Assembly: GCA_035438625.1 (NCBI GenBank)
Contig: DAORIS010000002.1
Span: 34,832-98,831 of the forward strand
Direction of reading: 5' to 3'
Length of the DNA stretch: 64,000 bases
Source of the DNA: Minisyncoccota bacterium
Lineage (GTDB): Bacteria > Patescibacteriota > Minisyncoccia > Phycocordibacterales > DAORIS01
The notes beneath the pieces are model-generated. The model did not search any database and was not told the DNA's origin. It saw only the letters and a list, made by a program, of their open reading frames with translations. Below, one piece after another: positions 29,901-63,355 of the stretch (its first letter is position 1; every line of letters begins with the position of its first letter). A program made the position numbers and the translations under genes.

Positions 29901-30586
29901 CTCCAGACATCAGTTCCATTCGATGCCCAGTTTCCAACGGCAGCACCAGCTAGGAGGTTTCCTGCCCAGTACAAATTACCCCCATCGTTATAGAGAGAGT
30001 TTGAGGTATCAGAAGGGGGAGTAATTTCCGCAAGGACAACATACTGTGCCAAAGAGAGTAGCCCTGCAATTGATGAAGTAGCGGTGTCCGTAACTGAAAG
30101 CGCACGAGAGAAGTCAATGGCACCTATGTCATCTTGAAGGTCTGAGATGTCCCCATTGACATCACTGAACCGATCAGCCATATCTTCACGAAATGAATCG
30201 ATGCGCTTGTTCACACGATCAAGAGAGACATTCGGTTGAGCTCGGAGGAGTTCTCTCATACGAACATCGATTTGAGCAATCACTTCTTCACGGGTGATCC
30301 CTGGTACTGTCACTTCACGGATGGTTTGGACAGTGTGGGTATCATAGACATATTCTGTTGATCCCTGAGGATACACAATGATAGGGGCAGTTTGTGGAGT
30401 TGCAACGTATGCAAAAGACGACGGCCCTTTCATTTCACATGAACCGAGGGTGGTGCAGTATATTCCACCAATATAATTTCCAAATGAAAATGCACGTAAT
30501 TTTTCAACCGGAACCGCAGAAAGGAAGATAGTTGATACAGCTATTAATCCAAAGAAAAAAGCCGTAATTCGGAAGTACGATTTCAC
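26975..30586 (-). CDS. Giant (1203 aa) secreted tail-fibre-like surface protein with a C-terminal intramolecular-chaperone autoproteolytic domain (Peptidase_S74-like)
   Basis: Signal peptide. Seven dispersed G-N-V-G-I-G-T-x-x-P repeats (GNVGVGTNTP, GLVGIGNSSP, GSIGIGTTTP, GNVGIGTTSP, GNVGIGSTSP, GNVGIGTTTP, GSLGIGTTSP). A C-terminal SDERLKKDV...GLIAQEVEKIFPELV...YGNLTPFIINSIQEL block matches the self-cleaving chaperone of phage tail spikes and fibres. Confidence 0.6.
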   Translation of the reverse strand: MKSYFRITAFFFGLIAVSTIFLSAVPVEKLRAFSFGNYIGGIYCTTLGSCEMKGPSSFAYVATPQTAPIIVYPQGSTEYVYDTHTVQTIREVTVPGITREEVIAQIDVRMRELLRAQPNVSLDRVNKRIDSFREDMADRFSDVNGDISDLQDDIGAIDFSRALSVTDTATSSIAGLLSLAQYVVLAEITPPSDTSNSLYNDGGNLYWAGNLLAGAAVGNWASNGTDVWRASGNVGVGTNTPTHTLTVDGGGYTSVRFFNGSNTLGGGMFLGAGGDSIGLVMQGGEYNSSGFVARATYASDLFFNNGYVQLRTDSELTPGSTYNPTTRLIIDRSGLVGIGNSSPLAQLHVTATASTTKGLIIRGASNQSSTLQEWQNSAGTALTVINASGSIGIGTTTPAEKFDIYNGNIRFGQPTYNSSSFIKFYAQNSYYNAHIKFSQDVTTNSGNIEFFTGRNGSTGGNVDFVTTVGGTPYLRFQGSSGNVGIGTTSPQFTLTIATTSSGIAPALGITNNAVAAANVGSSLGFYGWSAGSNFTTGLVTGAWEAASTNDSYLAFSTRGSNTIGEKLRITSVGNVGIGSTSPIAKLSIVGSAGSNPLVVASSTGTSLLTVSQTGALTVSSSGSFGGTVTGTNLTAGYGDGTIIPYGWYATLVVPGGTSATSRGITISGSDTVAGDVRVAVGTTSRGTYPSRFNVLQGDIAIDTGYGLQVAVNGTANRILGTGYGNGTTIASGQYIHMFPYGASSTSTGSVLWVNDNDRMDIRLGLKTGFPKSALDVVGGVSIGTYGGVTAAPSNGLIVSGNVGIGTTTPGSLLTVGGNISGDIVTANTRLITNDIRSSGTLFFNTNINTGSAYSFLVSGTSFVVSPDADLRGNIRNGVGNVTFVPSTNSRIGIIIRGVAAQSADLFQIQDSSSNTLLNITAAGSLGIGTTSPAKKLHVYVSSDDAPVRFEDTNGYCEINPTSTTWTCTSDERLKKDVASIDPLTSLERITALRPVSFQWNSQSDDTKRFGLIAQEVEKIFPELVSTDSKTGYKSVAYGNLTPFIINSIQELDLKVKTINEQLETISYESFMANTLTSLKKLVVETFTVGSQENPTGITLYDEVTGEPYCVKIKNGKMTTTELECGAKPIDDPGPAPTPIPLPIDPISEEQVVGGSHVEKEDILESIEVSTEITEEVQVDSNRSPQSNDSGEAENQSVAEETNE

Positions 30587-45230: not shown

Positions 45231-47504
45231 TTATTGCTTTGGAATAATACTTTTTGTTCCGGCGTTAATTGCGCCTTCATATGAAGTAATTTCTTGAACG
45301 ATCTGGGTGTTACCCGCTGTTGCTGCTTGAGTCTTAAGTTCAGCCAAAAGTTCGAGTGCGCCCTTTCTGTTACCAACCTCAAGTCGTGCCGCAGCAAGAA
45401 GAATGTGAGATGTTGGAGAAATCCTCTCTTGTTTCTTCAGTTCTGCAACCTGTGCTTCAAGTACCGGAAGTACTCGTGCTGTGTGTCCTGTTATAAGAAG
45501 TGCTTGTACTACTCCACTGTTTTCCATGACTTGTGGGTATTTTTCAATAGTATCGAAGGCGAGTTGATCTCTATTGCTATAAAGCGCTGTAACTACATAC
45601 AACCCTTCAATAGAAATATTTTTCTCTTGAACACTGACTGCATACTCAGCTCGCTTAAATGCTTCTTCAAATTTATCCTGGGTAAGCAAGAAAGATATTT
45701 CATCAGAGATAAACATCTGCTTCTTTGGAGACAATTCCTGTGCTTTTCGGATTAATTCCATTGCCTTATCAATTTCTCCTGTCCTTGAGTAACTTGTTGA
45801 AAGAATGTAGTACGCACGTGGATCATTTGGAGACTCTTCAATTTGATCCTGACCCGCCAAACGAGAGTCATTCAAGAAAGCCATTCCAACTTCATTTCCA
45901 GCACCAGCTTGCGAAGCAACATTTACAGCATTTGTAATGTATTGCTCTCGAATTTCTTGGTTTCCAAACGAATCATATGAAAGCGCCTTATCGAAATACA
46001 TTTTGGTGGCTTCGAAATTTGCCATTTGCTCTGCCTGGGTCTTGGGCGGCTGGGCCATAATGCGTAGCGCAGAGAGAAGTGACCTATTTGCTGCATACGG
46101 CTTATATGTACCGGCGTATAACGTATACGGAACAACAACAAGTGAAAGTACTGCGCATACAAGCATGACTTGCGTCTTGAGTACTGAATCACCTGCTTCT
46201 GCGTTTCCCTTTTTAGAAACAACATCTCGAGGAACAATTTGTGAATGGAAGAATGCAAGTATTCCAAAGAACAAAATATAACTTGCCAAGTTATCAAACA
46301 CGAACAAGTTATGGATAAAGTAACCAACGAGTATTCCAGTGAATACTGATTTCTGTAGAATTGAGAGGCGATCGCCTGGTATTTTCCAGAGCGTGTACCC
46401 AAGCATTGCAATTAGTGCGATATAGGCCAAGAAACCAACAATTCCTGTTGTGACCAACCACTCGATAAACATATTATGTGAGCGGTCAAACCATTGTTCG
46501 TGAGAATAAATTGCAGGATCGTAGTAGGTAGAAAAGATATAGTTAAAACTTTCCTGTCCCCAACCAAAGATTGGTCGATCCTTTACTCCCTCAAATGCCA
46601 TTTTCCATAGTGTTGGACGGGCCTGAGTTTCAGCGTTTGTGAGTGTTACCTCTGTAAATCTCCTAAGAATTGAAACGTTCTGCACAACGCCCGTATCCTT
46701 TAACAAGAAAAACAATCCGACAAGTGCAGTGACGCCAATAACCATTCCAGCTGCAATTTTCTTCAAGAGCGGATGATTACGTTCATAGATTGCGAGAAAA
46801 ATTCCAGCAACAAACGAGCCACCTAATATACCAAGTACTGTTCCTCGAGTACCGGTAAAGAATACACCTGCAATAAACGCAATGATTCCAACAGCATAGG
46901 CTGCAATACGCCATTTTTCTTGTCGTACTTTTTTATCAGACACTGCAATCAGTAACAATATGCCAGCGTGAATGAAAAAGTATGCACCAACATATGTTGA
47001 GTTTCCGAGCATAACATTAATACGTGGGGCAACACCATTACTTAGAAGTCCTCCAATTGCGTCAGACAATCCAACTAAGAGCATGATTGCGCTTATTGAA
47101 AGCGATGTAACCGCATACCACAACCACTCTTTTGTTGTACGAAAAACATTTGAAGCGATGAATGCAAAGGCACCGAGGTGCAAGAGTGCAATGTACCCTT
47201 CCATTCGCTCATAGTTACTCCAGAAACTCTTATATGGATTTTCACTAAAGATATTTGCAACACCTACAATCACCACAAAAACCAAAAGTGACCACATAAG
47301 ACCAGACGCCTTTGGCCTAAAACGTGCGTCCCTCCACGCAAGAAACAAATATGCCACCAATGCAATTTCTACAAGCGCCCTAAATGCAAAGTTTTTTCCA
47401 GCGATATATGGGAAAAACATTTCATTTGAAACATATAGCGGTACTGCCAGCACCAGTCCCAAACAGCCGATAACAATATATTGTAGTGTTTTATTCAAAT
47501 TCAT
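45231..47504 (-). CDS. Second O-antigen-ligase/Wzy-like membrane domain fused to TPR repeats (paralogue of 22371-24821)
   Basis: Same architecture as the first copy: polytopic N-terminus, then about 300 aa of TPR-like repeats. Confidence 0.55.
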   Translation of the reverse strand: MNLNKTLQYIVIGCLGLVLAVPLYVSNEMFFPYIAGKNFAFRALVEIALVAYLFLAWRDARFRPKASGLMWSLLVFVVIVGVANIFSENPYKSFWSNYERMEGYIALLHLGAFAFIASNVFRTTKEWLWYAVTSLSISAIMLLVGLSDAIGGLLSNGVAPRINVMLGNSTYVGAYFFIHAGILLLIAVSDKKVRQEKWRIAAYAVGIIAFIAGVFFTGTRGTVLGILGGSFVAGIFLAIYERNHPLLKKIAAGMVIGVTALVGLFFLLKDTGVVQNVSILRRFTEVTLTNAETQARPTLWKMAFEGVKDRPIFGWGQESFNYIFSTYYDPAIYSHEQWFDRSHNMFIEWLVTTGIVGFLAYIALIAMLGYTLWKIPGDRLSILQKSVFTGILVGYFIHNLFVFDNLASYILFFGILAFFHSQIVPRDVVSKKGNAEAGDSVLKTQVMLVCAVLSLVVVPYTLYAGTYKPYAANRSLLSALRIMAQPPKTQAEQMANFEATKMYFDKALSYDSFGNQEIREQYITNAVNVASQAGAGNEVGMAFLNDSRLAGQDQIEESPNDPRAYYILSTSYSRTGEIDKAMELIRKAQELSPKKQMFISDEISFLLTQDKFEEAFKRAEYAVSVQEKNISIEGLYVVTALYSNRDQLAFDTIEKYPQVMENSGVVQALLITGHTARVLPVLEAQVAELKKQERISPTSHILLAAARLEVGNRKGALELLAELKTQAATAGNTQIVQEITSYEGAINAGTKSIIPKQ

Positions 47505-50718: not shown

Positions 50719-51669
50719 ATGAAAATAATTGCAGTTACACCAGCACGAAACGAAGCTAGGCTCTTACCTTCATTTCTTACATTCTTGTCCTCTTTTGCTG
50801 ACTATATAATTATTGCCGATCAAGAATCGACAGATGGAAGCACTGAAATATACAAGCAGTTCCCAAAAGTATCAGTCATACAAAACCATCGCCCGTCACA
50901 CTCAAATGAAGTGAGGTGGGATCTGCTTACCAAAGCTCGAGAAATTGAAGGAGAAAACATTATTGTTTGCCTTGATGTCGACGAACGGATTCCGGCACAT
51001 TCTGTTCCATTAATTATTGATCACCTTAAACAGAAGGGGTCAGGCTTTAACGTTTCACTTCCCTGGATACAGTTATGGAAAAAACCAGAGGTGTACCGAA
51101 CTGACTGGCCGTGGGGAAATAACTACAAAGCGTGCATATTTTATGATGACCGAATCATGTCGTATGAACAATCTGTTGTGATCAATGATCACACCAATCG
51201 CATCCCAACCATTACTGCTGAAAAAAATACCATACTACCCTCACCACTTCTTCATCTTCAATACCTTTATTGGAACGAAGTGCAGCTTAAACAAGCGTGG
51301 TACAGGTGCAAGGAATACATTGCTGATCCCACAAAAATAAAGGCTATTAATTTAAAGTATGAATCCTCTCTAGACACTTCCCGAACAAAATTATCAGCAA
51401 CACCCCCCGAGTGGATTGATGAGAAGTCTTTCATTCCCACAAACATTGTAGAGACCACAAATCCGTGGCACCTACAAGAACTGCACGAAATGTTTAAGAC
51501 ACATTCCATTGCATACTTTGAGCCAATAGATATGTGGCACATTCAGACACTACAACAAGAATTTCAAACACAAGTTGGAAGAAAGCCTCACCCTACAAGA
51601 TATAACTCAATACTCCGTACACTGTATTATATTCTTCAATCCATCCGACAAAACCTTAAACACCAATGA
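50719..51669 (+). CDS. Glycosyltransferase family 2-like (GT-A fold)
   Basis: IIAVTPARNEARLL N-terminal box and downstream DVDE. Confidence 0.55.
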   Translation: MKIIAVTPARNEARLLPSFLTFLSSFADYIIIADQESTDGSTEIYKQFPKVSVIQNHRPSHSNEVRWDLLTKAREIEGENIIVCLDVDERIPAHSVPLIIDHLKQKGSGFNVSLPWIQLWKKPEVYRTDWPWGNNYKACIFYDDRIMSYEQSVVINDHTNRIPTITAEKNTILPSPLLHLQYLYWNEVQLKQAWYRCKEYIADPTKIKAINLKYESSLDTSRTKLSATPPEWIDEKSFIPTNIVETTNPWHLQELHEMFKTHSIAYFEPIDMWHIQTLQQEFQTQVGRKPHPTRYNSILRTLYYILQSIRQNLKHQ

Positions 51670-52532
51670 ACACCTGCATCATCACATCCGCATCCAATAA
51701 ATTCTTTCCATCGGTTCTGAATTTAATTGGTTCTATAAAAACAAATCACTCTCCAGTGATTCGGATTTTTGTATACGACCTAGGACTATCAAAAATCTTT
51801 AGAAAAGAACTTGAAACGATTGAAGGCGTGACAGTTATTACCCTTCCACCGTTTGTATCGTTCTGGCGTAGCTGCTACACATGGAAGTCCTACATTTTCT
51901 GCAATCCATTTGCAGAATTAAACTTCTATCTTGATGCTGGTACTCAAGTACTCCGCAGTCTCGATGAGATTTTTTCTATAATAAATAAGGATGGGTACAT
52001 TGCTGTCTCACAAGGTGTGTCGAATAAGGAGATCATCCCCGTCGATTACATTGAGACATTCAAGGCAGATCCTGCGATTTTAAATGAATCCTCTGTTACT
52101 GCTGGAGTGTTTGGATTTAAAAAAGACGGCTCTGTTTCGAACCAATTATCCTCAATGCACGAAGCATCAAAACAAGGATATTGCCTTGGTTTTTCAAAAG
52201 GTGACCAATGGAGAAACAAAGGAGTTAACAAAACAGACATTGTTCGATCCTGCGAAAAATTTAGACACGACACCACCCTGCTTAATATCTTCCTCAGAAA
52301 AGACAATCCAAATTTCTACGCACATGACGGTACTAAATATGCAGGCTGGAACACTCCACAGGACCATCCAAATCAACTTATTTGGAACATGCGTATGAAT
52401 TACACCCATTTACAGTATCTCCCTATTCGATACACACATAAAAAATTTTCACTCCTTGCAATTGTAAACCGAACCATCATTTATGTGTTTATATTGCTTA
52501 AACGTATGCGGTTAGTGATTAAAGGAAAATAA
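51666..52532 (+). CDS. Hypothetical protein, possibly a nucleotide-diphospho-sugar transferase-like enzyme
   Basis: Soluble, alpha/beta-looking protein embedded in a GT operon. No firm motif. Confidence 0.35.
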   Translation: MNTCIITSASNKFFPSVLNLIGSIKTNHSPVIRIFVYDLGLSKIFRKELETIEGVTVITLPPFVSFWRSCYTWKSYIFCNPFAELNFYLDAGTQVLRSLDEIFSIINKDGYIAVSQGVSNKEIIPVDYIETFKADPAILNESSVTAGVFGFKKDGSVSNQLSSMHEASKQGYCLGFSKGDQWRNKGVNKTDIVRSCEKFRHDTTLLNIFLRKDNPNFYAHDGTKYAGWNTPQDHPNQLIWNMRMNYTHLQYLPIRYTHKKFSLLAIVNRTIIYVFILLKRMRLVIKGK

Positions 52533-53356
52533 TGAACCACGATTTACTATCAACACTTAGCATCCCTCAAATGGATCAGTTCCACGAGTATCCTGATCCA
52601 TGCGTAAACAATCGATATTACCACCATCGTAAAGCACAAATTGTTTCTACGTTCATACAAAAGTATGCAAACCCATCTCACACACTACTTGATGCAGGGG
52701 CAGGTCGCGGTCCATACAGCGCGTTTGCTGCACCACTCTACAAATCAGTGTATATGTTTGAGTTCGATGCCTCTGAGCTTGAACACGCAAAAAAACATAC
52801 AAAAAATATTTCAAATATTCATGGAGAAGCTGTTGACCTTAGGCAAATTCCTCTCGGTGACGCAATGGTTGATGTCTGTATCTGCTCAGAAGTGTTAGAA
52901 CACATTCCCAACCACGAAAAAGCAGTTTCTGAGCTTTTCAGAACACTTACACCAAACGGTGTCGCACTAGTCTCTATTCCTAATGCTTTTAGTCTGTTTT
53001 ACATAAAAGTACGTTTCGGAAAAAGACACAGAGAATTACTCACTCGACTTGCACAGAGAGACACAAATGTTTTTAGTACACCTGAAGAATCCGGACTATC
53101 GTACCTCGAGTGGGAAATGATCCGTCATATTTCTTTCCCTTTTTGGAAAACCAAAGCTTTATTAAAGAAAGCTGGTTTTACCATCATCGCATCCCAAGGA
53201 GCAAATATAGTACCCATGCCATATAGAGTTCGATCGTTTCTCTTAAAAAAATTCCCGATTGGGTTCAAGGTGTGGATAGGGATCGATAGTGCACTAGGAA
53301 AGATATTTCCTTTCTTGGGTTCCTTTTACTTCCTTACACTTAAAAAACTTCCTTAG
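52532..53356 (+). CDS. Class I SAM-dependent methyltransferase
   Basis: LLDAGAGRGPYS motif I and DVCICSEVLEHIPN motif II/post-II. Confidence 0.7.
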   Translation: MNHDLLSTLSIPQMDQFHEYPDPCVNNRYYHHRKAQIVSTFIQKYANPSHTLLDAGAGRGPYSAFAAPLYKSVYMFEFDASELEHAKKHTKNISNIHGEAVDLRQIPLGDAMVDVCICSEVLEHIPNHEKAVSELFRTLTPNGVALVSIPNAFSLFYIKVRFGKRHRELLTRLAQRDTNVFSTPEESGLSYLEWEMIRHISFPFWKTKALLKKAGFTIIASQGANIVPMPYRVRSFLLKKFPIGFKVWIGIDSALGKIFPFLGSFYFLTLKKLP

Positions 53357-53747
53357 CTTTAAACACTACGATTTTTGCACCGATAAAGTTAGTGATTGTA
53401 GATACTCCAATTGCGCACACATTTGCCAACAGCACATTCATAGTAAAAACCTCTACCAGTAGACGAAGTGTAAGTAGACTCAACACAAGCGAGAATAGAC
53501 AGACTGCTGCATACAACATAAATTCTTTTCTTTTTCGATATCCACCTGACTCAAAAGACACCCTTCGGTTCAATTCATAGCTAATGAAGATGCCGACAAT
53601 GAATCCGATTGCACTCGAGAGAAGGTACTGAACGTTTGCAGTACGTAATAGAACGAAAAATATAGAATAGTTACAGATAGTGCTAATGACCCCGACAACA
53701 GCAAAATTTCGAAATTGTATTGCTGTTTTTCGATTAAATACATCCAT
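53340..53747 (-). CDS. GtrA-family small membrane protein
   Basis: 135 aa, four TM helices, N-terminal FxxVGxxxTxxN-like GtrA box. Confidence 0.65.
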   Translation of the reverse strand: MDVFNRKTAIQFRNFAVVGVISTICNYSIFFVLLRTANVQYLLSSAIGFIVGIFISYELNRRVSFESGGYRKRKEFMLYAAVCLFSLVLSLLTLRLLVEVFTMNVLLANVCAIGVSTITNFIGAKIVVFKAKEVF

Positions 53748-53822
53748 AGAGGTCTACGTGGCTGAAAGTATACCATTTGCATAAATATGCTACGATACCG
53801 TCTACAAACAACGGGACACTAT

Positions 53823-54419
53823 ATGCAGGTCATTATCCATCGTGTAAATAAGATCGAACAACTTGCCAAGATTCCAACACACTATGGAGTCGAAATTGAC
53901 ATCAGAGGGTTTGGAGACAAACTAGTACTCACACACGAACCTTTTGAAGACGGAGATGAGCTTGAGGAATATCTAAAGGGATATAAACACGCATTTGTAA
54001 TTTTCAATATCAAAGAAGCTGGAATTGAAAAGCGTGTTATTGATCTCGCAAAGAAATATAAAATCAAAAACTACTTCCTTCTCGATGTAGAGCCGTACTG
54101 GATCCATCACGCAACAACTGATGGATTTAAAAATATCGCTATTCGATACTCAGAGAACGAACCAATTGAAATGGCACTTAAGTACAAGAAAAAAGCTGAT
54201 TGGTTATGGATCGATATTCCAACAAAACTTCCCCTCTCACCTAAGATTGTTAAGCAAATGAAAGGATATAAAACATGCCTTGTGTGTCCTGAGCGTTGGG
54301 GCCGCCCTCAAGAGATTTCTAAGTACATCAAGAAAATTAAGTCATTGAAATTTAAGCTTGATGCAGTGATGACATCTCTAAAATACGCTGATGCATGGGA
54401 AACATTGAACAAGAAATAA
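53823..54419 (+). CDS. Glycerophosphodiester phosphodiesterase (GDPD)-like protein
   Basis: IIHRVN (HRG-like) and GVEIDIR...DKLVLTHEP (E-D...HD) boxes. Start set at MQVIIHRV. Confidence 0.4.
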   Translation: MQVIIHRVNKIEQLAKIPTHYGVEIDIRGFGDKLVLTHEPFEDGDELEEYLKGYKHAFVIFNIKEAGIEKRVIDLAKKYKIKNYFLLDVEPYWIHHATTDGFKNIAIRYSENEPIEMALKYKKKADWLWIDIPTKLPLSPKIVKQMKGYKTCLVCPERWGRPQEISKYIKKIKSLKFKLDAVMTSLKYADAWETLNKK

Positions 54420-54420
54420 T

Positions 54421-55179
54421 ATGCAAGTAATTATTCCAATGGCAGGATTAGGCCAACGATTCCAATTTGCAGGATATAAGGATCCTAAGCCACTTATCGA
54501 TATCGACGGAAAACCAGTTATCGAACACATTGTAAACATGTTTCCTGATGTAGAAAAGTTAATATTTATCGCAAATGAAAACCACCTCGCAAATACAAAC
54601 ATGCGAGATGTACTACAAAGAGTTGCTCCTCACGGTAAAGTAGTTGCTATTCCTGAACACAGACTTGGTCCGGTATACACGGTTCTCCAAGCAGTCGAGC
54701 ACATTGACGACAACCTTCCTGTCGTCACGTGTTACTGTGACATACACACACCGTGGAACTTTAAAGAATTTGTACAACATATGCAGGATACTAACGCCGA
54801 AGCTGGTGTCGTTGCTTTTAAAGGTTTTCATCCACCACTTCTACAAGAAGGCCTCTACGCCACAGCTCGCACAGACGAAAATGATGACGAAGTACTAGAA
54901 GTACGTGAAAAATTTTCTTTCACACCAAATAAAATGGACTCATGGACTTCCGCTGGTGTACACTACTTCAAAAGCGGAGCTTTGGTTAAAAAATACTTTA
55001 AAAAATTAATTGACCTTGATATCCGATGTAACGATGAGTTTTATATCAGTATGATCCACAACCTCCTTATAGAAGACAAGCTCAAAAACGTATTGCACCC
55101 AATAGACTTTTTCATCTCATGGGGTAAACCAGAGGATGTGAGAGAATATCAATATTGGTCAAAACACTTCAATAAGTAA
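54421..55179 (+). CDS. LicC-like sugar/alcohol-phosphate nucleotidyltransferase
   Basis: IIPMAGLGQRF...KPL N-terminal nucleotidyltransferase signature. Confidence 0.6.
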   Translation: MQVIIPMAGLGQRFQFAGYKDPKPLIDIDGKPVIEHIVNMFPDVEKLIFIANENHLANTNMRDVLQRVAPHGKVVAIPEHRLGPVYTVLQAVEHIDDNLPVVTCYCDIHTPWNFKEFVQHMQDTNAEAGVVAFKGFHPPLLQEGLYATARTDENDDEVLEVREKFSFTPNKMDSWTSAGVHYFKSGALVKKYFKKLIDLDIRCNDEFYISMIHNLLIEDKLKNVLHPIDFFISWGKPEDVREYQYWSKHFNK

Positions 55180-55180
55180 C

Positions 55181-55948
55181 ATGCGGACAAATTTAATGCT
55201 ACTGGCTGGAAGAGGGAAAAGATTTGCAGACGCAGGTTATAGTATTCCCAAACCCCTAATTCCTGTAAACGGCCTTCCTATGGTCATTTCTGCTGTTCAC
55301 AGCATGCCAAAGGCGGATAAGTTAATCTTTGTTGTTTCAGGTGATTATGTTAATAACCACGACATAACAAACCTCCTACTTTCATATTTCCCCGAGGCAC
55401 AAATTATTGTCCAAACAAGTCCGCTACAAGGACAAGCCCATAGTGCACTTGAGGCTGTTGATGCCATCGATCCAGAATCAGTGCTTACAATTGCAAGTTG
55501 TGACGCAGGTCCAACATACGATATGAATAAGTTTGAAAGCGACCTGCTTTCTGAAGATCAAGATGCACTTATATGGTCATTTAGACACTATCCTCCAATG
55601 CAGACACAACCAAGTGCCTATGGATGGATTGATGCAGACGAGCAAGGTCTAGTAAAAAAGGTACAGTACAAAGTTCCACTTTCTGACCACCCCCTTGAAG
55701 ACCATGCTGTTGTTGGGTGGTTTAGCTACAGAAAAGCAAAGACCTGTTTTGACAATGTAAAGGAAATGATTGAAAAGAACCTAAAGAGCGGCGTTGAATT
55801 TTCACTTGATGAATGCACCAACGTATTGGTAAAAAACAATCACAAAGTTAAGGTTTTTGAAATCGACACATTCCTTTCATGGGGAACCCCTATTGAATTA
55901 AAGACATATGAATACTGGCAGCGATACTTCGAAACAAAGAAAAAATAG
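55181..55948 (+). CDS. Second LicC-like nucleotidyltransferase (tandem paralogue)
   Basis: LAGRGKRF...KPLIPV signature, and the same length as the preceding gene. Confidence 0.6.
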   Translation: MRTNLMLLAGRGKRFADAGYSIPKPLIPVNGLPMVISAVHSMPKADKLIFVVSGDYVNNHDITNLLLSYFPEAQIIVQTSPLQGQAHSALEAVDAIDPESVLTIASCDAGPTYDMNKFESDLLSEDQDALIWSFRHYPPMQTQPSAYGWIDADEQGLVKKVQYKVPLSDHPLEDHAVVGWFSYRKAKTCFDNVKEMIEKNLKSGVEFSLDECTNVLVKNNHKVKVFEIDTFLSWGTPIELKTYEYWQRYFETKKK

Positions 55949-57668
55949 AGTCAGCGTACTTGTTTTACTTTTCATCACCGTCCTAGCAGCAAGCTGGGTA
56001 TGGCATATCACTTCTAGAAATTATCACTTCCAAGAAGTGGACTCTTCAGGGACCTATAACATCCTATACGAATTTCCTGGGTCAACATTACGCTTTATTG
56101 CACTTCTCTATCCTCACGGTAGTTTTATTTCAACAAGTACAGCTGAAAAAATTCTTTCGCACGATTCAATTCGTTCGATTAAAAACACATACCTTTCATC
56201 TTTTAGTGATGAATTTCTCATTAATCAACTAACACAAGCATCACTACTAAGTACATTTAGGTACGGTCTAACACAAGCAATTTCTTCCGCTCCTTTGCCT
56301 TTTGCAGTACAGAGTTTTTTCTCAATGGGAATTGGATCAACATACTCACCAGGTGCTGGTTTTGTGTATGGATTGGTTTCCGGACCAAACGCAGATTATT
56401 TGACGTTTATGTCTCGATCAATGGTCGTATCCATTACACTATTTCATGTATCTGTTTTACTACTATTTCTCATTAACAGAAAACTTGGAGTTTCAGATGG
56501 TGTAAATTCGCTTGTATGTTTTCTCATGTTGTTCTCGATAAGTATCTACTCGTCTGGAATTCATGTTGGTAGTACTGTGTGGAATTTCACAACAGAATTC
56601 TTGTGGTTATACTTTCTAGTCACCTATTACAAACACCCTGAGATACACCGACATATTGCTTGGTTAACAGGAGTATTGATCTTTTTCAATTACCTCATTT
56701 TACTGTTTTGGCTTGCCTTCATGTTCATTCGATTATTTGAATGGTGGAAACAGACACAGTCTCGTTCACTTAAAAAGTTTGGTGTATGGTTTTGGGGAAC
56801 AATAAAATCACAACTTCCAGCAATTATATTAATTGGTACAGCTACAATTCTTTTCTTCCTTCCAGGTCAAGGTTTTAGAGGATCTGCAACATTTGCAACG
56901 CTTCCTTCTGATGTCTATTACACCGTACTTAACTTCTTTAGTTGGTACACACACTCAGCACCATTCAATCTTTTACAGTACAGCATGGGTGTATTACTAC
57001 TCGCCTCATCACTATTGTTTTTCATTCCCAAACAAACAGAAGGGTCCGTTCATTCATTAGTTAAACAAATCTGTCTTCTCGTACTTGCTCTATATATAGT
57101 ATTAGCAATCCTCCACACCCTAAGTTTTGCTCCAACACGCCATATCCTTTTCCTTATACCAATACTATTTATCTCCATTGCACAGGGATTATCTATCCTC
57201 TCGAAAAAAACTGGGATTCATATACCTACATACGTATCAGTTTCAGCGCTTACCATCCTCTCTGTACTTGGTATGTATTGTGTATTCCTGCGTGGGTTTG
57301 ATACTGCCGACCGAACGGTGTTTCTAAACACCACTGATCCTGAAGTGTCTACAATTGGAATACACGATGGCTCGTATGATATTTATTACAAGTATGCAGA
57401 GAACAAGACTCCGGTGACGTTCATGCATCCTAAAATATTTGAAGCAGGTAAGACGTATTTGTATGTCAGCCCTTCTGTCGCATTTGAAACTCAGATGCGG
57501 GAATGGAGAAAAGAGCACGATATGGAAATAGAAATCTTGTATGATGCAAGGGAGATAACGGACGCATATTTCATCGCTCACAATCCAAATTTTGAGCGAT
57601 TCCGTTACAGTCGCCCCAACAACCTATACCAAACAAAATTTACCGTTCGATCAGTATCAAAAAAATAA
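55908..57668 (+). CDS. Large polytopic membrane protein (GtrC/GT-C-like candidate glycosyltransferase or polymerase)
   Basis: 586 aa with more than 10 TM helices and no soluble catalytic motif. It lies directly upstream of a DPM-synthase-like GT2 and near gtrA. Confidence 0.45.
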   Translation: MNTGSDTSKQRKNRVSVLVLLFITVLAASWVWHITSRNYHFQEVDSSGTYNILYEFPGSTLRFIALLYPHGSFISTSTAEKILSHDSIRSIKNTYLSSFSDEFLINQLTQASLLSTFRYGLTQAISSAPLPFAVQSFFSMGIGSTYSPGAGFVYGLVSGPNADYLTFMSRSMVVSITLFHVSVLLLFLINRKLGVSDGVNSLVCFLMLFSISIYSSGIHVGSTVWNFTTEFLWLYFLVTYYKHPEIHRHIAWLTGVLIFFNYLILLFWLAFMFIRLFEWWKQTQSRSLKKFGVWFWGTIKSQLPAIILIGTATILFFLPGQGFRGSATFATLPSDVYYTVLNFFSWYTHSAPFNLLQYSMGVLLLASSLLFFIPKQTEGSVHSLVKQICLLVLALYIVLAILHTLSFAPTRHILFLIPILFISIAQGLSILSKKTGIHIPTYVSVSALTILSVLGMYCVFLRGFDTADRTVFLNTTDPEVSTIGIHDGSYDIYYKYAENKTPVTFMHPKIFEAGKTYLYVSPSVAFETQMREWRKEHDMEIEILYDAREITDAYFIAHNPNFERFRYSRPNNLYQTKFTVRSVSKK

Positions 57669-57669
57669 C

Positions 57670-58371
57670 ATGAAACTTTCAATCGTAGTTCCCTTCTATA
57701 ACGAAGAAAAAAATATTCCATTAGTATTACAAGTATTTCAAAAGTTCGCTTCTTCATACGACTTTGAACTGATTTGTATTAACGATGGATCAAAGGACAA
57801 TACCGCTGAAGTGTTTACACAATTTGCAGGAAATAACTCATACCCGTTTGCAAAATTTATTTCATACTCTCCTAATGGCGGATACGGCAACGCCATAATG
57901 ACCGGGGTCCGAGCTGCGACGGGAGACATTGTTGGATGGACCCACAGTGATATGCAGACTGATCCAAAAGATGTATTCACTGCATTTGACGTGTTAAAAA
58001 ACGAGACCAATAAAAGGACACTCGTCAAAGGAGCACGTATCAATCGCCCACTTCCCCAGGTAGTTCTCAGTTACGGTATGGCAGTTATTGCAAGTGTAAT
58101 CCTCCGAAAGGTACTCGTTGAAATTAATGCACAACCAAAAGTATTTTTCAAAGAATGCATTGAGCTACTTACCAACGCTCCAAAAGATTTTTCTCTAGAT
58201 CTATACTTGCTATACCAAGCAAAAATTCACGGATACACAATCAAGACTATTGATGTTGAGTTCAAAAACCGATTACATGGAGAATCAAGTTGGGGTGGAA
58301 GTTTCCAAAATCGCATCAAGACAATCAAGCGCACATACGCATACATTTGGAAACTAGCAAAAAGTAAATAA
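57670..58371 (+). CDS. GT2 polyprenol-phosphate glycosyltransferase (GtrB/DPM1-like)
   Basis: LSIVVPFYNEE, INDGSKDNT and DxD-type motifs. Start set at MKLSIVV. Confidence 0.7.
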   Translation: MKLSIVVPFYNEEKNIPLVLQVFQKFASSYDFELICINDGSKDNTAEVFTQFAGNNSYPFAKFISYSPNGGYGNAIMTGVRAATGDIVGWTHSDMQTDPKDVFTAFDVLKNETNKRTLVKGARINRPLPQVVLSYGMAVIASVILRKVLVEINAQPKVFFKECIELLTNAPKDFSLDLYLLYQAKIHGYTIKTIDVEFKNRLHGESSWGGSFQNRIKTIKRTYAYIWKLAKSK

Positions 58372-58412
58372 AAAAAAGCCGACGTACATTGTACACCGGC
58401 ACACTTCAGAAC
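58372..58412. terminator. Bidirectional intrinsic terminator
   Basis: A-run, then GCCGacGTACAttGTACAccGGC hairpin between convergent genes. Confidence 0.5.
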
Positions 58413-58428
58413 GAGACCGTTCAATCTT

Positions 58429-59082
58429 CTACATCGTAAACAAATCCATCGCGGGACTGAAACGTGCATGCTCAATTTTGAGTACAATTGGCGATTCACT
58501 GAAAGTAGTATCGCCAATGTGTACTCGATCCCGGTACACATCGAGCTTATTTCCCACTTTCATCATCCGAGAAATCGTACAGTGGAAAATATCTGCGATT
58601 GCTTTTGGTTTGAGACCACATTCTGCAAATTCCTCCCAAAGGATTTCTCGCATGTTACGCACCTCGTCAGGAACATACTCTGCACAAAGTATGATGACAC
58701 TTTTGTCAGCAATCAACCGAGTGAACTCCACCTCAAGACCTTCGAGCGTTGGTAGTGACGGAACGACTTTCTGTTTGAAAGTTTCAAATGCTTCCTTGGG
58801 ACCGGTTGCGTTCATCACAGTCGTATGTAAACGGAAGTCTCTACCAACCATGAACAACTCGGAATTACTCTCTTGCTCAATGTTCTCCACAAGTGGGCGA
58901 AGCATACTGAGACACGTGGATTCTGATTGAGCAGTGTACCGTGCAAAAACACCGCATTGATCTCCAAGAAATTCAGGAGTAAAGCCTTCGAAAGGGGCAA
59001 TATTTCCTCTTGCAATCGCCTCAACACCCTCCGATTGGATCTGCTTGATACGAGCAACGACATTTGCCTGTTTAGCTGCCAC
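58429..59082 (-). CDS. 2H-phosphoesterase superfamily protein (LigT/ThpR-like)
   Basis: Two H-x-T-x motifs (LHTTV and FHCTIS) at the spacing expected for 2H enzymes. Confidence 0.45.
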   Translation of the reverse strand: MAAKQANVVARIKQIQSEGVEAIARGNIAPFEGFTPEFLGDQCGVFARYTAQSESTCLSMLRPLVENIEQESNSELFMVGRDFRLHTTVMNATGPKEAFETFKQKVVPSLPTLEGLEVEFTRLIADKSVIILCAEYVPDEVRNMREILWEEFAECGLKPKAIADIFHCTISRMMKVGNKLDVYRDRVHIGDTTFSESPIVLKIEHARFSPAMDLFTM

Positions 59083-59203: not shown

Positions 59204-60292
59204 ATGAAAAAAGTATTCGTCTCTGGTTGTTACGACATTCTTCACGCTGGCCATATTCAATTTTTTAAAGACGCACGAGCACTCGGTGACCACCTCACTG
59301 TTTCTTTTGCAAGTAAAGACGTACTCGCACTTTCTAAAAAGCGTAAACCTTCACTCCCAGACGACCACAAGATGATTATCATCGGTTCCCTTTCCTGTGT
59401 TGATGAAGTGGTCACTAGTTCAGACCTAGACCCAGTTTTTGATTTCAAAAAGAATATCAAACGAATAAAACCAGAAATTTTGGCAGTTACGGAAGACGAC
59501 AGGAATGCTGAAGTAAAACGCCAATTTTGTGCTGAACAAGGAATTAAGTTCGTTGTCTTACCAAAACGCCGAACCGCAAGCTTGGCATCAACAACATCAA
59601 TCCTTGCTGGCATCCACAATGTGTCAGAACTCCCCCTTCGTGTTGATTTTGCTGGTGGCTGGTTGGATGTTCCAAGATTTTCTAAAAAAGGTACATTCAT
59701 CGTAAATTGCACAATCACTCCTAAGGTATCTCTATCAAATTGGCCATACGAACAAGGTGGTGGACTTGGTGGATCTGCGGCATACGCACTACTACAAGTT
59801 AAGAATGGCGTAGCATCAGAAATTGATTTAGGTGTTGGCTGGCAAGACCCTGCCGTAATCAATGAAACCGGACTCTGTGTATGGCGCTCAGGAAAAGAAC
59901 CTGTCCTCGATGCAAAGTTTCATCCAGACTGGCTAGCAGGAAAAATGTTAATCGTGTGGACAGGTACATCTCATGTAACACCCGGACTGGTTGATAAAAA
60001 ACGAGATTTTAAATTAATTGCAAAAGCAGGAGGTTTGGCAAAGGACGCTGTATACAAGAAAAGTCTCCCGGGGTTAGCAAGAGCAATCAACACAAGCTAC
60101 AAAGTTCAAATTGGTGAAGGAATGGAACCCCTACAAAATATTGTAGGATCAATTGCAAAAAAATATCTTGGTGGAGGCCACGGTGGATACTCTCTCTATT
60201 TATTTGATAGCGAAAAGAAGCGAGAAAAGGCATTCAAAAAGATCGGTGAAGCAGCGAAAAAAATTGAGCCTTATATAAAGCCAATACAGTAA
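59204..60292 (+). CDS. Fusion of a cytidylyltransferase-like (HIGH-type nucleotidyltransferase) domain and a GHMP-kinase-like domain
   Basis: N-terminal VSGCYDILHAGHIQFF (TagD/RfaE-domain-II type). Downstream GGGLGGSAAYALL (GHMP kinase motif II-like). Confidence 0.55.
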   Translation: MKKVFVSGCYDILHAGHIQFFKDARALGDHLTVSFASKDVLALSKKRKPSLPDDHKMIIIGSLSCVDEVVTSSDLDPVFDFKKNIKRIKPEILAVTEDDRNAEVKRQFCAEQGIKFVVLPKRRTASLASTTSILAGIHNVSELPLRVDFAGGWLDVPRFSKKGTFIVNCTITPKVSLSNWPYEQGGGLGGSAAYALLQVKNGVASEIDLGVGWQDPAVINETGLCVWRSGKEPVLDAKFHPDWLAGKMLIVWTGTSHVTPGLVDKKRDFKLIAKAGGLAKDAVYKKSLPGLARAINTSYKVQIGEGMEPLQNIVGSIAKKYLGGGHGGYSLYLFDSEKKREKAFKKIGEAAKKIEPYIKPIQ

Positions 60293-61580: not shown

Positions 61581-62444
61581 ATGAAACAATTCCTTCGAAA
61601 ATTTGTCCTCTCAACCTTTGGAAAATCAGTGTTATTGCTTCCCCACTCACTTACTAATCAATCACAACCAACAGCGGCAAAATCAGTCCATGGATTTTGG
61701 TACGTAGGTAACGTATTTAATACAAGTTCAATTGCCTATGGAGTAGCCAAGAACGGAGAGGTTGAGAAAGAAGAGGTAGCTGTTGCAATTTCAGTTCTAA
61801 AACAACTACCACCAAATTTCTCCTTCGTAGATATTGGAGCACACACTGGGTACTACAGCATTCTTGCATCAACACTTTTTCCACAGTCAAAGATCACCGC
61901 AATTGAGCCAGGTAAAGAATTCATTGAGGAATTCAAGATGAGTGTTGATCTAAACAAGATTACAAACATTTCAATACTGGAAGTGGCAGCTGGAAAAGAG
62001 AGTGGGGCCGGCACACTCCACATGCAAGGATCTGGTAGCAGCCTCTCTCCATGGTTTAAGAGTGAAACATCAACTGAAGCACGAACCGTACAAATTAAAA
62101 CACTCGACGAACTATTCCACAGTAAACAGCCAGTAGATTTTATTAAAATAGACGCTGAAGGCTTTGAGTATGAAATCCTTCAAGGTGCAAAATCTCTACT
62201 CTCTTCTGAAAAACCACTACTATATGTAGAAGTTGGCGGAGATCTTTCGGTACTAGATAGAAAATCAACTAACCCACACTTTAGCCAGACCTTTGAATAT
62301 ATGAAGTCTCTTGGATACACCGCATACGAATTCGAAAGTGGAAAAGGTCAAAAAGTGAATCCAACTAATCCGTGGAGTGGTATTCGAATGTGTCTTTTTA
62401 CTCACAATGAAAAGCACAGAGACGTTGCAAGAAACATTTCATGA
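61581..62444 (+). CDS. FkbM-family methyltransferase
   Basis: FVDIGAHTGYYS box and DFIKIDAEGFEYEIL box. Confidence 0.7.
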   Translation: MKQFLRKFVLSTFGKSVLLLPHSLTNQSQPTAAKSVHGFWYVGNVFNTSSIAYGVAKNGEVEKEEVAVAISVLKQLPPNFSFVDIGAHTGYYSILASTLFPQSKITAIEPGKEFIEEFKMSVDLNKITNISILEVAAGKESGAGTLHMQGSGSSLSPWFKSETSTEARTVQIKTLDELFHSKQPVDFIKIDAEGFEYEILQGAKSLLSSEKPLLYVEVGGDLSVLDRKSTNPHFSQTFEYMKSLGYTAYEFESGKGQKVNPTNPWSGIRMCLFTHNEKHRDVARNIS

Positions 62445-63355
62445 TTACTATTTTAACCAGACCTCCTACCCTATCAATTCTTACTATTAAAGAATTGGCT
62501 GCTGAAATTCTGGGTAGAACTCGGGGACCTAGAGCTGTTGTTGAGAGCTTAAAGCGAGGACTCACAGAAATTGGAAGCGAATTCGCTGTTAATTCTCTTG
62601 GTGTAACTGATACCACCCATGTCATTAGCGGCGCCACAACTTTAAAGTACGCAATTAACAAAAAGCGTCAGGGAAAAATCAAAAAACTAATTGCAGGACC
62701 AGTAATTAGTATCACTCCAACTGATCACGACAGTATTATTTTGTCCCCCGAGATCGACCTCATTTTGTTTCCATCTCAATGGACAAAGGATTTCTTTGTT
62801 CACCAATCCCCCTCGCTTGCCGACAAGATTAAGATTTGGCCAGCAGGTACCACAATATCTAATGACGTATCTCCACGCTCTCACAAACGTGCACTATTGT
62901 TTATAAAAAACCAAGATATTGTTACAGAAGCACGAGTTACTAAAGAACTTATACAGCTGGGCTACCAAGTCGTTCGTATGGAGTATGGAACTTTTGGCCA
63001 GAAAGAATACTTCAAAAACCTCTTAACATGCAGTTGCATGGTGTATATGAGTTTTTCTGAAAGCCAAGGACTAGCAATACAAGAGGCGTGGATGCGCGAC
63101 GTGCCTACACTTGTATACAACCGAGGTTTTTGGCAAAGCGGAACTGACATCTGGAAAGACTCAAGAATATCTGCACCATACCTCGACGCACGTGCTGGCA
63201 TGTTCTTTTCTCCCGATGAAAACATTGAGATGGACACTCGAACGTTTATTGAAAAACTTCCCTCTTACACACCACGAGTGCGGGCACTCGAACTGTCAGA
63301 CGAAGCATGTGCCAAAAAATATATTGATATAATTAGTTCCAATGAAGCTGCGTAA
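62441..63355 (+). CDS. Putative glycosyltransferase (GT-B C-terminal-domain-like)
   Basis: SESQGLAIQEAWMRDVPTLV resembles the E..G....EA...G.P GT4 C-terminal signature. The N-terminal half is not recognised. Confidence 0.4.
   Translation: MITILTRPPTLSILTIKELAAEILGRTRGPRAVVESLKRGLTEIGSEFAVNSLGVTDTTHVISGATTLKYAINKKRQGKIKKLIAGPVISITPTDHDSIILSPEIDLILFPSQWTKDFFVHQSPSLADKIKIWPAGTTISNDVSPRSHKRALLFIKNQDIVTEARVTKELIQLGYQVVRMEYGTFGQKEYFKNLLTCSCMVYMSFSESQGLAIQEAWMRDVPTLVYNRGFWQSGTDIWKDSRISAPYLDARAGMFFSPDENIEMDTRTFIEKLPSYTPRVRALELSDEACAKKYIDIISSNEAA

Follow-up and report, generated by a model that had tools for sequence, protein, structure and literature searches.

What pathway is encoded by a compact run of genes inside the glycopolymer cluster of a Minisyncoccota bacterium, and how might the sugar that it transfers be activated? 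The genes lie in a 64,000-nucleotide stretch of chromosome (the window; contig DAORIS010000002.1 of assembly GCA_035438625.1, positions 34,832 to 98,831 of the forward strand) from a member of the Candidate Phyla Radiation (CPR; Patescibacteria), and all coordinates below are those of the window. The original prediction, made from the sequence alone, saw here a GtrA gene, a GtrB-like family 2 glycosyltransferase (GT2) and a large polytopic protein, which together would glycosylate an exported polymer, interleaved with two nucleotidyltransferases and a phosphodiesterase-like protein that were thought to activate a phospho-alcohol. Family, fold and synteny uphold the three-component logic; the phospho-alcohol part finds no support. 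Probably, in our view, these genes form a self-contained module for three-component glycosylation through a lipid carrier, equipped with a non-standard nucleotide-sugar pathway of its own. The features discussed are as follows, with the strand in brackets.

53340-53747 (-): GtrA gene (PF04138), divergent and upstream of the five-gene operon on the + strand
53823-54419 (+), in an open reading frame that opens at 53787: gene for a 198-residue protein with a predicted glycerophosphodiester phosphodiesterase (GDPD) fold, here called GDPDl, assigned from a structure model
54421-55179 (+): NTP1, gene for an NTP_transferase/NTP_transf_3 protein
55181-55948 (+): NTP2, gene for a second NTP_transferase/NTP_transf_3 protein
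55908-57668 (+): gene for a 586-residue protein with a predicted GT-C fold (AlphaFold2 model and Foldseek search)
57670-58371 (+): gene for a 233-residue GT2 (PF00535)
58378-58400 (-): candidate terminator, a hairpin with a 10-bp stem (6 GC pairs) and a T-run, a match to the consensus only
58429-59082 (-): gene for a 217-residue 2H-phosphoesterase-like protein (PF13563, below cut-off), a tentative module member

All of the open reading frames (ORFs) predicted originally were recovered at unchanged coordinates. Because the five + strand genes are separated by single nucleotides or overlap by 41 nucleotides, we treat them as one operon. A GC-rich hairpin followed by a T-run, likely a terminator, separates the GT2 gene from the convergent 2H-like gene. 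A scan for sigma-70 promoters was uninformative, as it returned fewer sites in the real sequence than in shuffled versions.

The three-component core

The GtrA protein (135 amino acids, with four hydrophobic segments in a crude scan) matches PF04138 with an E value of 7.2e-26 and 91 bits (cut-off 26), which upholds its assignment and supplies the small GtrA-family polytopic protein expected of a Gtr system. The GT2 belongs to PF00535 (E = 1.6e-21). Its residues 1-210 align with residues 23-233 of the dolichyl-phosphate mannose synthase (DPMS) of Pyrococcus furiosus (5MLZ; E = 1.3e-12), covering the full catalytic domain, and its N-terminal half aligns with ArnC and with the GtrB protein sll0501; it also matches the NCBIfam PgfS/ArnC models, below their cut-offs. 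This homology agrees with the earlier description of the protein as DPM1/GtrB-like and suggests a glycosyltransferase of the type that charges polyprenyl phosphate (DPMS/ArnC/GtrB). The GT2 is soluble, without transmembrane (TM) helices, and PF04138 carries the name 'GtrA/DPMS transmembrane domain' in Pfam; the pair therefore looks like a split DPMS. GtrA is likely the membrane partner of the GT2, equivalent to a detached DPMS TM domain, a candidate flippase, or both.

One feature sets the GT2 apart from its characterized relatives. The stretch 'THSDMQTDP' lies opposite 'LDADLQNPP' of Escherichia coli ArnC, so that His stands in place of the first Asp in the D-x-D motif (H-S-D). The pattern H-[ASG]-D-x-Q recurs in 64 of the 81 module GT2s from related loci, whereas ArnC, DPMS and GtrB have D-A-D-L-Q. 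This H-x-D signature may reflect an unusual donor or metal.

The 586-residue protein has no match in Pfam or NCBIfam. Its AlphaFold2 model (pLDDT 90.5, built on a 24-sequence alignment) was compared with the Protein Data Bank (PDB) using Foldseek, and the top 14 matches were all GT-C proteins, among them ALG9, ArnT, AftA, PglB, STT3, Pmt4 and DPY19, with a probability of 1.0 for the top ten and TM-scores of 0.25-0.43. Lower in the list, PimE and AftB are mixed with GPI-transamidase chains, followed by unrelated transporters. GT-C enzymes carry a catalytic acid after the first TM helix (TM1). In the family alignment, the motif R37-x-x-H40-F-Q-x-x-D45-S46 is near-invariant and directly follows TM1, and on the predicted topology D45 would provide the acidic motif that GT-C enzymes have in the first extracytoplasmic loop. 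The model thus favours a polytopic glycosyltransferase of the GT-C fold that ends in a soluble alpha/beta domain, in keeping with the place proposed for the protein as the third, 'GtrC' component.

The GT-C family comprises 24 members, and every one that its source names comes from a CPR lineage or from a generic bacterial metagenome-assembled genome (MAG). Loss of synteny between this membrane protein and the GT2 had been set beforehand as grounds for abandoning the assignment. Instead, the two genes are adjacent in 8 of the 12 distinct loci that carry the GT-C family, and all 12 copies lie in the same module. The three core genes are clustered and co-inherited, as in Gtr systems.

Two nucleotidyltransferases

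NTP1 matches the Pfam models NTP_transf_3 (E = 4e-12), IspD (1.9e-6) and NTP_transferase (1.6e-5), and NTP2 matches NTP_transferase (2.3e-8). These matches are above the Pfam cut-offs, and the superfamily's G-x-G-x-R loop, Lys and Asp are retained in both proteins; the invariant residues include G9, R13, K23 and D107 of NTP1 and G10, G12, R14, K24 and D108 of NTP2. Aligned end to end, the two share 25% identity (E = 3e-35) and are paralogues. A comparison of their substrate pockets had been called for, and at the level of motifs it finds a difference between the invariant G84-Q85-A86 of NTP2 and G83-P84-V85 of NTP1.

For both profiles the closest solved relative is 4EVW, a structural-genomics entry from Vibrio cholerae described as an NDP-sugar pyrophosphorylase. 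It matches NTP1 over the full length with E = 2e-16, followed by GlmU, HddC and then UTP-glucose-1-phosphate uridylyltransferases; for NTP2 it scores E = 1e-13, ahead of GlmU, HddC, inositol-1-phosphate cytidylyltransferase (IPCT) and RmlA. As 4EVW is uncharacterized, no function can be transferred from it. LicC (1JYK) reaches the NTP1 profile only at E = 0.014, over N-terminal residues 2-50 and at about rank 30, and, for NTP2, is not among the matches at E<=1e-3. Of the earlier description as tandem LicC-type nucleotidyltransferases, the tandem pair of NTP_transferase-family proteins stands and the LicC label does not, given how much closer 4EVW, GlmU and HddC are. We regard NTP1 as a putative nucleotidyltransferase of a 4EVW-like subfamily that occurs only in one variant of the module, and NTP2 as a putative sugar-phosphate nucleotidyltransferase that is a universal module member.

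A distant relative of NTP1 (P0177, 32% identity; L094 8001-9176) is fused to an RpiB/LacAB sugar-phosphate isomerase domain, in a locus that also encodes GT10, WavE, a HAD protein, two epimerases and a ribonucleotide reductase of class I. We set this fusion aside as an argument for pentoses: it belongs to a different glycan locus, without a GDPD-fold gene, and lends little weight.

A GDPD-fold protein outside the GDPD family

GDPDl has no Pfam or NCBIfam match at E<=0.01 and no PDB match by phmmer or profile search. Of 40 family members tested, none matches the GDPD model PF03009 with the threshold relaxed to E<=10, hhalign comparisons with E. coli UgpQ and GlpQ give no significant result (probability <1%), and in an exhaustive profile search the best 150 matches all belong to the GDPDl family itself, with no bridge to GDPD among the matches listed. 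The AlphaFold2 model, by contrast with these profile tests, is confident (pLDDT 97.2, 40-sequence alignment), and its best PDB matches are GDPDs (3KS5/3KS6, 7E0V, 1ZCC and 4OEC) with query-normalized TM-scores (TMq) of 0.6-0.73 at 12-14% identity; the scores of other small barrels are 0.5-0.55. Invariant residues include H6, R7, N9, E24, D26, R28, H38, K64, E65, E69, D88, E90 and R108, and the spacing of H6-R7, E24-x-D26 and H38 resembles that of H12-R13, E39-x-D41 and H54 in UgpQ, as judged by comparing motifs without superposition. The prediction of a GDPD-like protein was to be given up if it failed HMM (hidden Markov model) thresholds. It does fail them, so that membership of the family falls away and the resemblance of fold and motif remains: the 198-residue protein is best described, from its model, as a GDPD-fold enzyme that is not a member of the GDPD family. 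We predict a minimal TIM-barrel enzyme of the cytoplasm that depends on metal and acts as a phosphodiesterase or transesterase.

Homologues begin at the second ATG of the open reading frame (53823). The family is large: clustering at 90% identity gives more than 1,669 clusters, and at 50% identity there are at least 1,500 representatives that reach E<=1e-3, among them 736 that reach E<=1e-10. Neither Pfam nor NCBIfam has a model for it, and every source that names its members annotates them as hypothetical. Proteins 45-82% identical to that of the window occur in CPR bacteria, in DPANN archaea (Nano-, Woese- and Pacearchaeota), in single-cell genomes of Pelagibacteraceae (SAR11) and in MAGs labelled Cytophagaceae, Aquirufa, Sediminibacterium, Verrucomicrobiota, Armatimonas, Spirochaeta, Rhodospirillales and Gammaproteobacteria.

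The 2H-like protein encoded beyond the putative terminator matches PF13563 at E = 6e-4 (20 bits; cut-off 27). It has two H-x-T/S motifs, H86-T-T and H167-C-T, of which H86, T88 and H167 are invariant in four orthologues, and orthologues lie inside or beside the module in the loci L012, L004 and L051. Its similarity to the 2H family of the other module variant described below (variant A) is weak (hhalign E = 0.007, probability 5%). In L004, from Doudnabacteria, a Lactamase_B_2 gene (10592-11455, -) directly follows the GT2 gene, at the position of the 2H-like gene in the window; its product is of the PhnP-like metallo-beta-lactamase family, with a weak match to the anti-Pycsar protein Apyc1, and the next gene is of the inositol-monophosphatase family. 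L004 also has a 2H-like gene of its own, between GDPDl and NTP1.

Conservation, fusions and two front ends

The gene order GtrA-GDPDl-NTP1-NTP2-GT-C-GT2 is kept in an unclassified CPR-like bacterial MAG (GT-C 51% identical), in Doudnabacteria (37%), on an 811-kb contig and in a locus with two GT-C genes (31-34%), for which the source names are Liptonbacteria and Microgenomates. To place this on a wider footing, ORFs were called in 80 species-representative loci by a crude six-frame scan and assigned with ad hoc HMM profiles; co-occurrence was counted within 8 kb of GDPDl in the 47 loci that have >=5 kb of flank on both sides. A module-type GT2 is present in 45 of these 47 loci, as is an NTP2-family gene (44 by separate NTP2-type profiles). 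A polytopic protein of at least 450 residues occurs in 41 (a crude count), a class II aldolase-family gene in 34 and a GtrA domain in 33.

The front end takes one of two mutually exclusive forms in 45 of the 47 loci. Variant A (17 loci, from non-CPR bacteria and DPANN) never has NTP1. All 17 loci instead encode a fusion of GtrA with ribulose-phosphate 3-epimerase (RPE), a fusion of a PolB-type nucleotidyltransferase with His_Phos_1, and a 2H phosphoesterase, and most carry a bona fide AraD (NF006047, 317 bits against a cut-off of 257). Variant B (28 loci, mostly CPR) has NTP1 in every case and the PolB gene in none. In 19 of the 28, a membrane domain is fused to a phosphoribulokinase (PRK)-like domain (NF005655, 209 bits against a cut-off of 236), and most of these 19 also encode a 340-residue aldolase-II-like protein and a HAD protein, for which the best NCBIfam match, below its cut-off, is ribulose-1,5-bisphosphate (RuBP) 5-phosphatase (NF053830, E = 4e-42). 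The window holds the minimal NTP1-type form. By their family assignments, the accessory genes of its relatives (PRK, RuBP-5-phosphatase-like HAD, RPE and AraD) point to pentulose or pentose phosphates.

The GtrA-type fusion genes come in several forms (L007 2134-4638, L009 65-2569, L019 3439-5925, L075 3922-7101 and L065 5449-6510). They include proteins of about 830 residues that join GtrA, a polytopic domain with a weak Alg6/Alg8 match and a PRK-like domain; a 1,059-residue protein that joins polytopic, PRK and aldolase-II domains, with no GtrA domain detected; and GtrA-RPE-His_Phos_1 (834 residues) and GtrA-RPE (353 residues) proteins. Such tethering of pentose-phosphate enzymes to the membrane is unusual.

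GDPDl itself takes part in many fusions, which we sought among representatives at 50% identity. It is joined to both nucleotidyltransferases in either order (GDPDl-NTP1-NTP2 in P0211 and NTP1-NTP2-GDPDl in P0213), to NTP1 (P0270), to 2H domains (2H-GDPDl in P0187, P0230 and P0233; partial in P0212), to the GT2 (GT2-GDPDl in P0306), to an inositol monophosphatase (IMPase)-family phosphatase (P0182) and to a Leloir-type GT61 domain (P0220 and P0250). These fusions place GDPDl in cytoplasmic donor synthesis, beside both nucleotidyltransferases and the 2H enzyme, and speak against a catabolic or scavenging role. The gene set reappears in many lineages that are not related to one another, and as fusions too, so chance does not account for the arrangement. 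What the genomes display directly is the presence of the genes, the family or fold of their products, the conservation of the set, the fusions and the two accessory gene sets.

A proposed pathway and its alternatives

We propose the following pathway. Its catalytic steps and their order, the sugar and nucleotide involved and the acceptor are all inferred. In the cytoplasm, NTP1, GDPDl, NTP2 and, where present, the 2H-like enzyme would turn a sugar phosphate from central metabolism, probably derived from the pentose-phosphate pathway, into a nucleotide-activated glycosyl donor. The soluble GT2, docked on the four-helix GtrA, would then move the sugar onto polyprenyl phosphate; the lipid-linked sugar would be flipped; and the GT-C enzyme would add it, outside the membrane, to the glycan made by the surrounding Wzx / Wzy_C-TPR / GT4 / GT2 cluster. 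Both nucleotidyltransferases retain the catalytic G-x-G-x-R...K...D signature, and GDPDl has, as judged by motif, the putative His-Arg, Glu-x-Asp and His set of metal-dependent phosphodiesterases.

Several points weigh against this proposal. The link of GDPDl to GDPDs depends on a predicted structure and a short motif, all sequence-profile tests having failed, and the TM-scores of the GT-C model are low, though its top matches are exclusively GT-C. The 2H call in the window is below the Pfam threshold, and 2H is absent from 26 of the 28 NTP1-type loci. The variant in the window has no pentose-phosphate accessory gene at all, so that the case for a pentose is borrowed from relatives. Co-occurrence was measured only on loci that carry GDPDl, with the crude ORF calls and ad hoc profiles described above, and the taxon labels of some MAGs may be wrong.

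How could four such enzymes make a glycosyl donor? One tentative answer is that they relocate a phosphate to the anomeric carbon. NTP1 might activate a sugar phosphate at a non-anomeric position (a pentose 5-phosphate, or a ketose 1-phosphate such as ribulose 1-phosphate); in variant A, the PolB-type nucleotidyltransferase might take the place of NTP1 and act on the free sugar. GDPDl could conceivably use a hydroxyl of the sugar as the nucleophile and expel the nucleoside monophosphate, leaving a cyclic or bridged sugar phosphodiester, and the 2H enzyme might open the diester on its other side to give an anomeric phosphate, from which NTP2 would make the donor for the GT2. The product, on this doubtful but chemically explicit route, might be an NDP-pentofuranose or an NDP-ketose, which ordinary kinase and mutase chemistry does not easily make. 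Such a route uses each conserved gene once and accounts for the presence of two nucleotidyltransferases. It fits the tri-domain fusions in both orders and the 2H-GDPDl fusions, the exclusivity of the PolB gene (17 loci without NTP1) and NTP1 (28 loci without PolB), and the pairing of PRK with the RuBP-5-phosphatase-like HAD, which would convert ribulose 5-phosphate to ribulose 1-phosphate. The Lactamase_B_2 gene at the position of the 2H-like gene in L004, which also keeps its own 2H-like gene, can be counted in its favour, and AvrBs2 with XanP offers an experimental precedent (PMC12807533). The route is nevertheless entirely inferential, in its intermediates as in the order of its steps. In the 26 NTP1-type loci that lack 2H, ring opening would need another enzyme, and the PDB matches of the two profiles do not divide NTP1 and NTP2 into 'non-anomeric' and 'anomeric' enzymes. 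Its tentative standing extends to the idea, framed within it, that the module may have spread by horizontal transfer across CPR, DPANN, SAR11, Bacteroidota, Verrucomicrobiota and other lineages.

The acceptor could also differ from the one that we propose. The same machinery might serve a GT-C enzyme that glycosylates a protein (a pilin, an S-layer protein or a lipoprotein) or a lipid in place of the nearby polysaccharide. The protein O-, N- and C-glycosyltransferases in the GT-C match list (PglB, Pmt and DPY19) and the varied neighbourhoods of the module among relatives are compatible with this idea, which we consider rather improbable because the window and its closest relatives embed the module in a Wzx / Wzy_C-TPR / GT cluster.

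The phospho-alcohol pathway of the original prediction, in which a GDPD provides an alcohol phosphate for activation as a CDP-alcohol and phosphocholine, glycerol-phosphate or ribitol-phosphate ends up on the polymer, now appears very unlikely. It could draw on the weak IspD and NTP_transf_3 matches of NTP1, on the weak match of the NTP2 profile to IPCT, on the GDPD-like fold of the 198-residue protein, which is real, and on the CTP_transf_like gene next door (59204-60292). Against these stand the distant, N-terminal-only match to LicC and, more generally, nucleotidyltransferases that resemble sugar-1-phosphate enzymes at least as closely as they do LicC, IspD or TarI, as well as the failure of the GDPD Pfam model for 40 of 40 members. 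Pfam and NCBIfam searches of the ORFs between 44 and 63 kb found no LicD, TagF, LtaS, CDP-alcohol phosphotransferase or choline kinase, nor LicA and LicB, the kinase and transporter that accompany LicC and the LicD phosphotransferase in its pathway. The conserved GT2 partner and the fused GT61 domain, moreover, need glycosyl donors, in the case of the GT2 a nucleotide sugar, and the accessory enzymes of relatives are those of pentose phosphates.

Canonical GDPDs are catabolic, and CPR and DPANN organisms scavenge lipids and nucleotides, but we strongly disfavour GDPDl as an unrelated housekeeping or scavenging phosphodiesterase that joined the operon by chance, because 45 of the 47 loci, which span phyla, link it to the GT2 and NTP2, and because it is found covalently fused to NTP1-NTP2, 2H and GT2 domains. 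Two further routes were set aside. A compatible-solute pathway of the GpgS/IPCT type was rejected in view of the GtrA and GT-C partners and of the full-length similarity of the GT2 to DPMS, and a route from phosphoribosyl pyrophosphate (PRPP) to 5-phosphoribosyl-1,2-cyclic-phosphate was dropped as wasteful and unsupported.

Genomic setting

The module sits inside a glycopolymer cluster of the CPR chromosome. Upstream, the cluster contains a 757-residue Wzy_C+TPR protein, a GT4, a Wzx-type flippase, two GT2s, a 288-residue orphan and a methyltransferase; downstream it contains a CTP_transf_like/GHMP-like protein, a GT4, FkbM-type methyltransferases, DUF268, a GT11 and a GT2. The flanks are chromosomal (SecA, MurB, MurJ, LepA, enolase, iPGM, a class I tRNA synthetase and six tRNA genes), and G+C content is about 0.38-0.45 across the window.

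The Wzy_C (O-antigen ligase/polymerase) protein, with its C-terminal TPR region, is encoded at 45231-47504 (-), directly upstream of the cluster, and is kept beside the module in the closest relatives (L003, L012 and L013); a second large TPR protein is encoded at 22371-24821. The 288-residue ORF (51666-52532, +) is kept beside the module in the same three loci. Neither this ORF nor a 304-residue one in the cluster (62441-63355, +) has a significant Pfam or NCBIfam match, the latter showing only a sub-threshold match to HemS.

The 362-residue protein encoded at 59204-60292 (+) has an N-terminal CTP_transf_like domain, for which the best matches, below cut-off, are the models for RfaE domain II (heptose-1-phosphate adenylyltransferase) and TagD, and its C-terminal part shows a weak likeness to the fucokinase/GHMP region of Fkp. 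Relatives lie near the module in L009, L020, L038, L051 and L086. This protein is a candidate for a second enzyme of sugar activation, perhaps one that serves the GT11 fucosyltransferase encoded further downstream in L001.

Farther away, a 1,203-residue protein (26975-30586, -) has a Peptidase_S74 domain, which in endosialidase or tailspike proteins serves as an intramolecular chaperone, and adjoins a 583-residue protein with PG_binding_1 repeats (25231-26982, -). The pair resembles a phage-tailspike-like fibre within a CPR chromosome.

Significance and comparison with known systems

Three-component GtrA/GtrB/GT-C glycosylation is well known; the conserved donor-synthesis block is the part of the module without a counterpart in described three-component systems. 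Our searches of the available literature, aimed at GtrA with RPE/AraD and a nucleotidyltransferase and at GT-C enzymes of Patescibacteria, turned up no account of the module. The route by which pentofuranose and ketose sugars enter glycans is only partly solved, and the linkage and fusion of GDPDl with the nucleotidyltransferases, 2H and a lipid-carrier GT2 would imply a new way to an activated sugar, possibly a pentofuranose or a ketose. The cell surfaces of CPR and DPANN episymbionts mediate attachment to their hosts; if the proposal is correct, this would be one of few surface-glycan pathways defined for such organisms. Carriers are assigned to genera with cultured members (Aquirufa, Sediminibacterium and Armatimonas), which makes experiments feasible.

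The nearest comparison is with Gtr-type systems, namely GtrA/GtrB/GtrC of Shigella and Salmonella phages, CsbB/GtcA/YfhO and GtlA/GtlB of Firmicutes, and PpgS/Rv3632/Rv3779 of mycobacteria (PMC8035078, PMC7389260). On the evidence of sequence and models, the module appears to share with them a small GtrA-family membrane protein, a GT2 that would charge polyprenyl phosphate and a GT-C enzyme that would act outside the membrane, clustered in a glycopolymer locus. It differs in that its GT2 lacks the C-terminal TM helices of GtrB and has H-x-D in place of D-x-D, in that its GT-C protein comes from a 24-member family without a Pfam model, and in the addition of three or four dedicated donor-synthesis genes that are absent from all of the described systems. 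P. furiosus DPMS and ArnC resemble the GT2 over the full length of the catalytic domain, and the TM domain of DPMS and GtrA are both PF04138; unlike in DPMS, the catalytic and TM parts are separate genes here, on opposite strands.

In the PRPP-dependent pentofuranose systems, which combine PPPRS, a MATE flippase and GT136 (Kelly et al. 2024, PMC11127046), a GT-C enzyme likewise adds side chains after polymerization from a polyprenyl-phosphate sugar, with auxiliary enzymes that vary the pentose; pentoses are likewise suggested by the accessory genes of the module's relatives. In contrast to those systems, Pfam searches found no UbiA-like PPPRS or MATE family protein in the module or among neighbouring ORFs, and a Leloir-type GT2 would form the lipid donor from a nucleotide sugar.

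GDPDs proper (PF03009; UgpQ, GlpQ, 3KS5 and 7E0V) share with GDPDl, as judged from its model and sequence, the TIM-barrel fold and a putative catalytic HR...ExD...H motif of similar spacing. GDPDl is about 50 residues shorter, lacks the ENT motif and detectable profile similarity, and has a biosynthetic genomic context, as opposed to the catabolic one of GDPDs. An experimental precedent for the proposed donor chemistry is AvrBs2, a GDPD-derived sugar-phosphodiester synthetase that converts UDP-galactose into a cyclic sugar phosphodiester and UMP, with a sugar hydroxyl as the nucleophile, together with XanP, a 2H phosphoesterase that hydrolyses this diester to galactose 1-phosphate (PMC12807533). 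AvrBs2/agrocinopine synthase and XanP form a secreted-effector and nutrition system, unlike the module; they resemble it, by fold and by the chemistry described for them, in linking a GDPD fold to a 2H fold, two folds that in the module are sometimes fused in a single protein.

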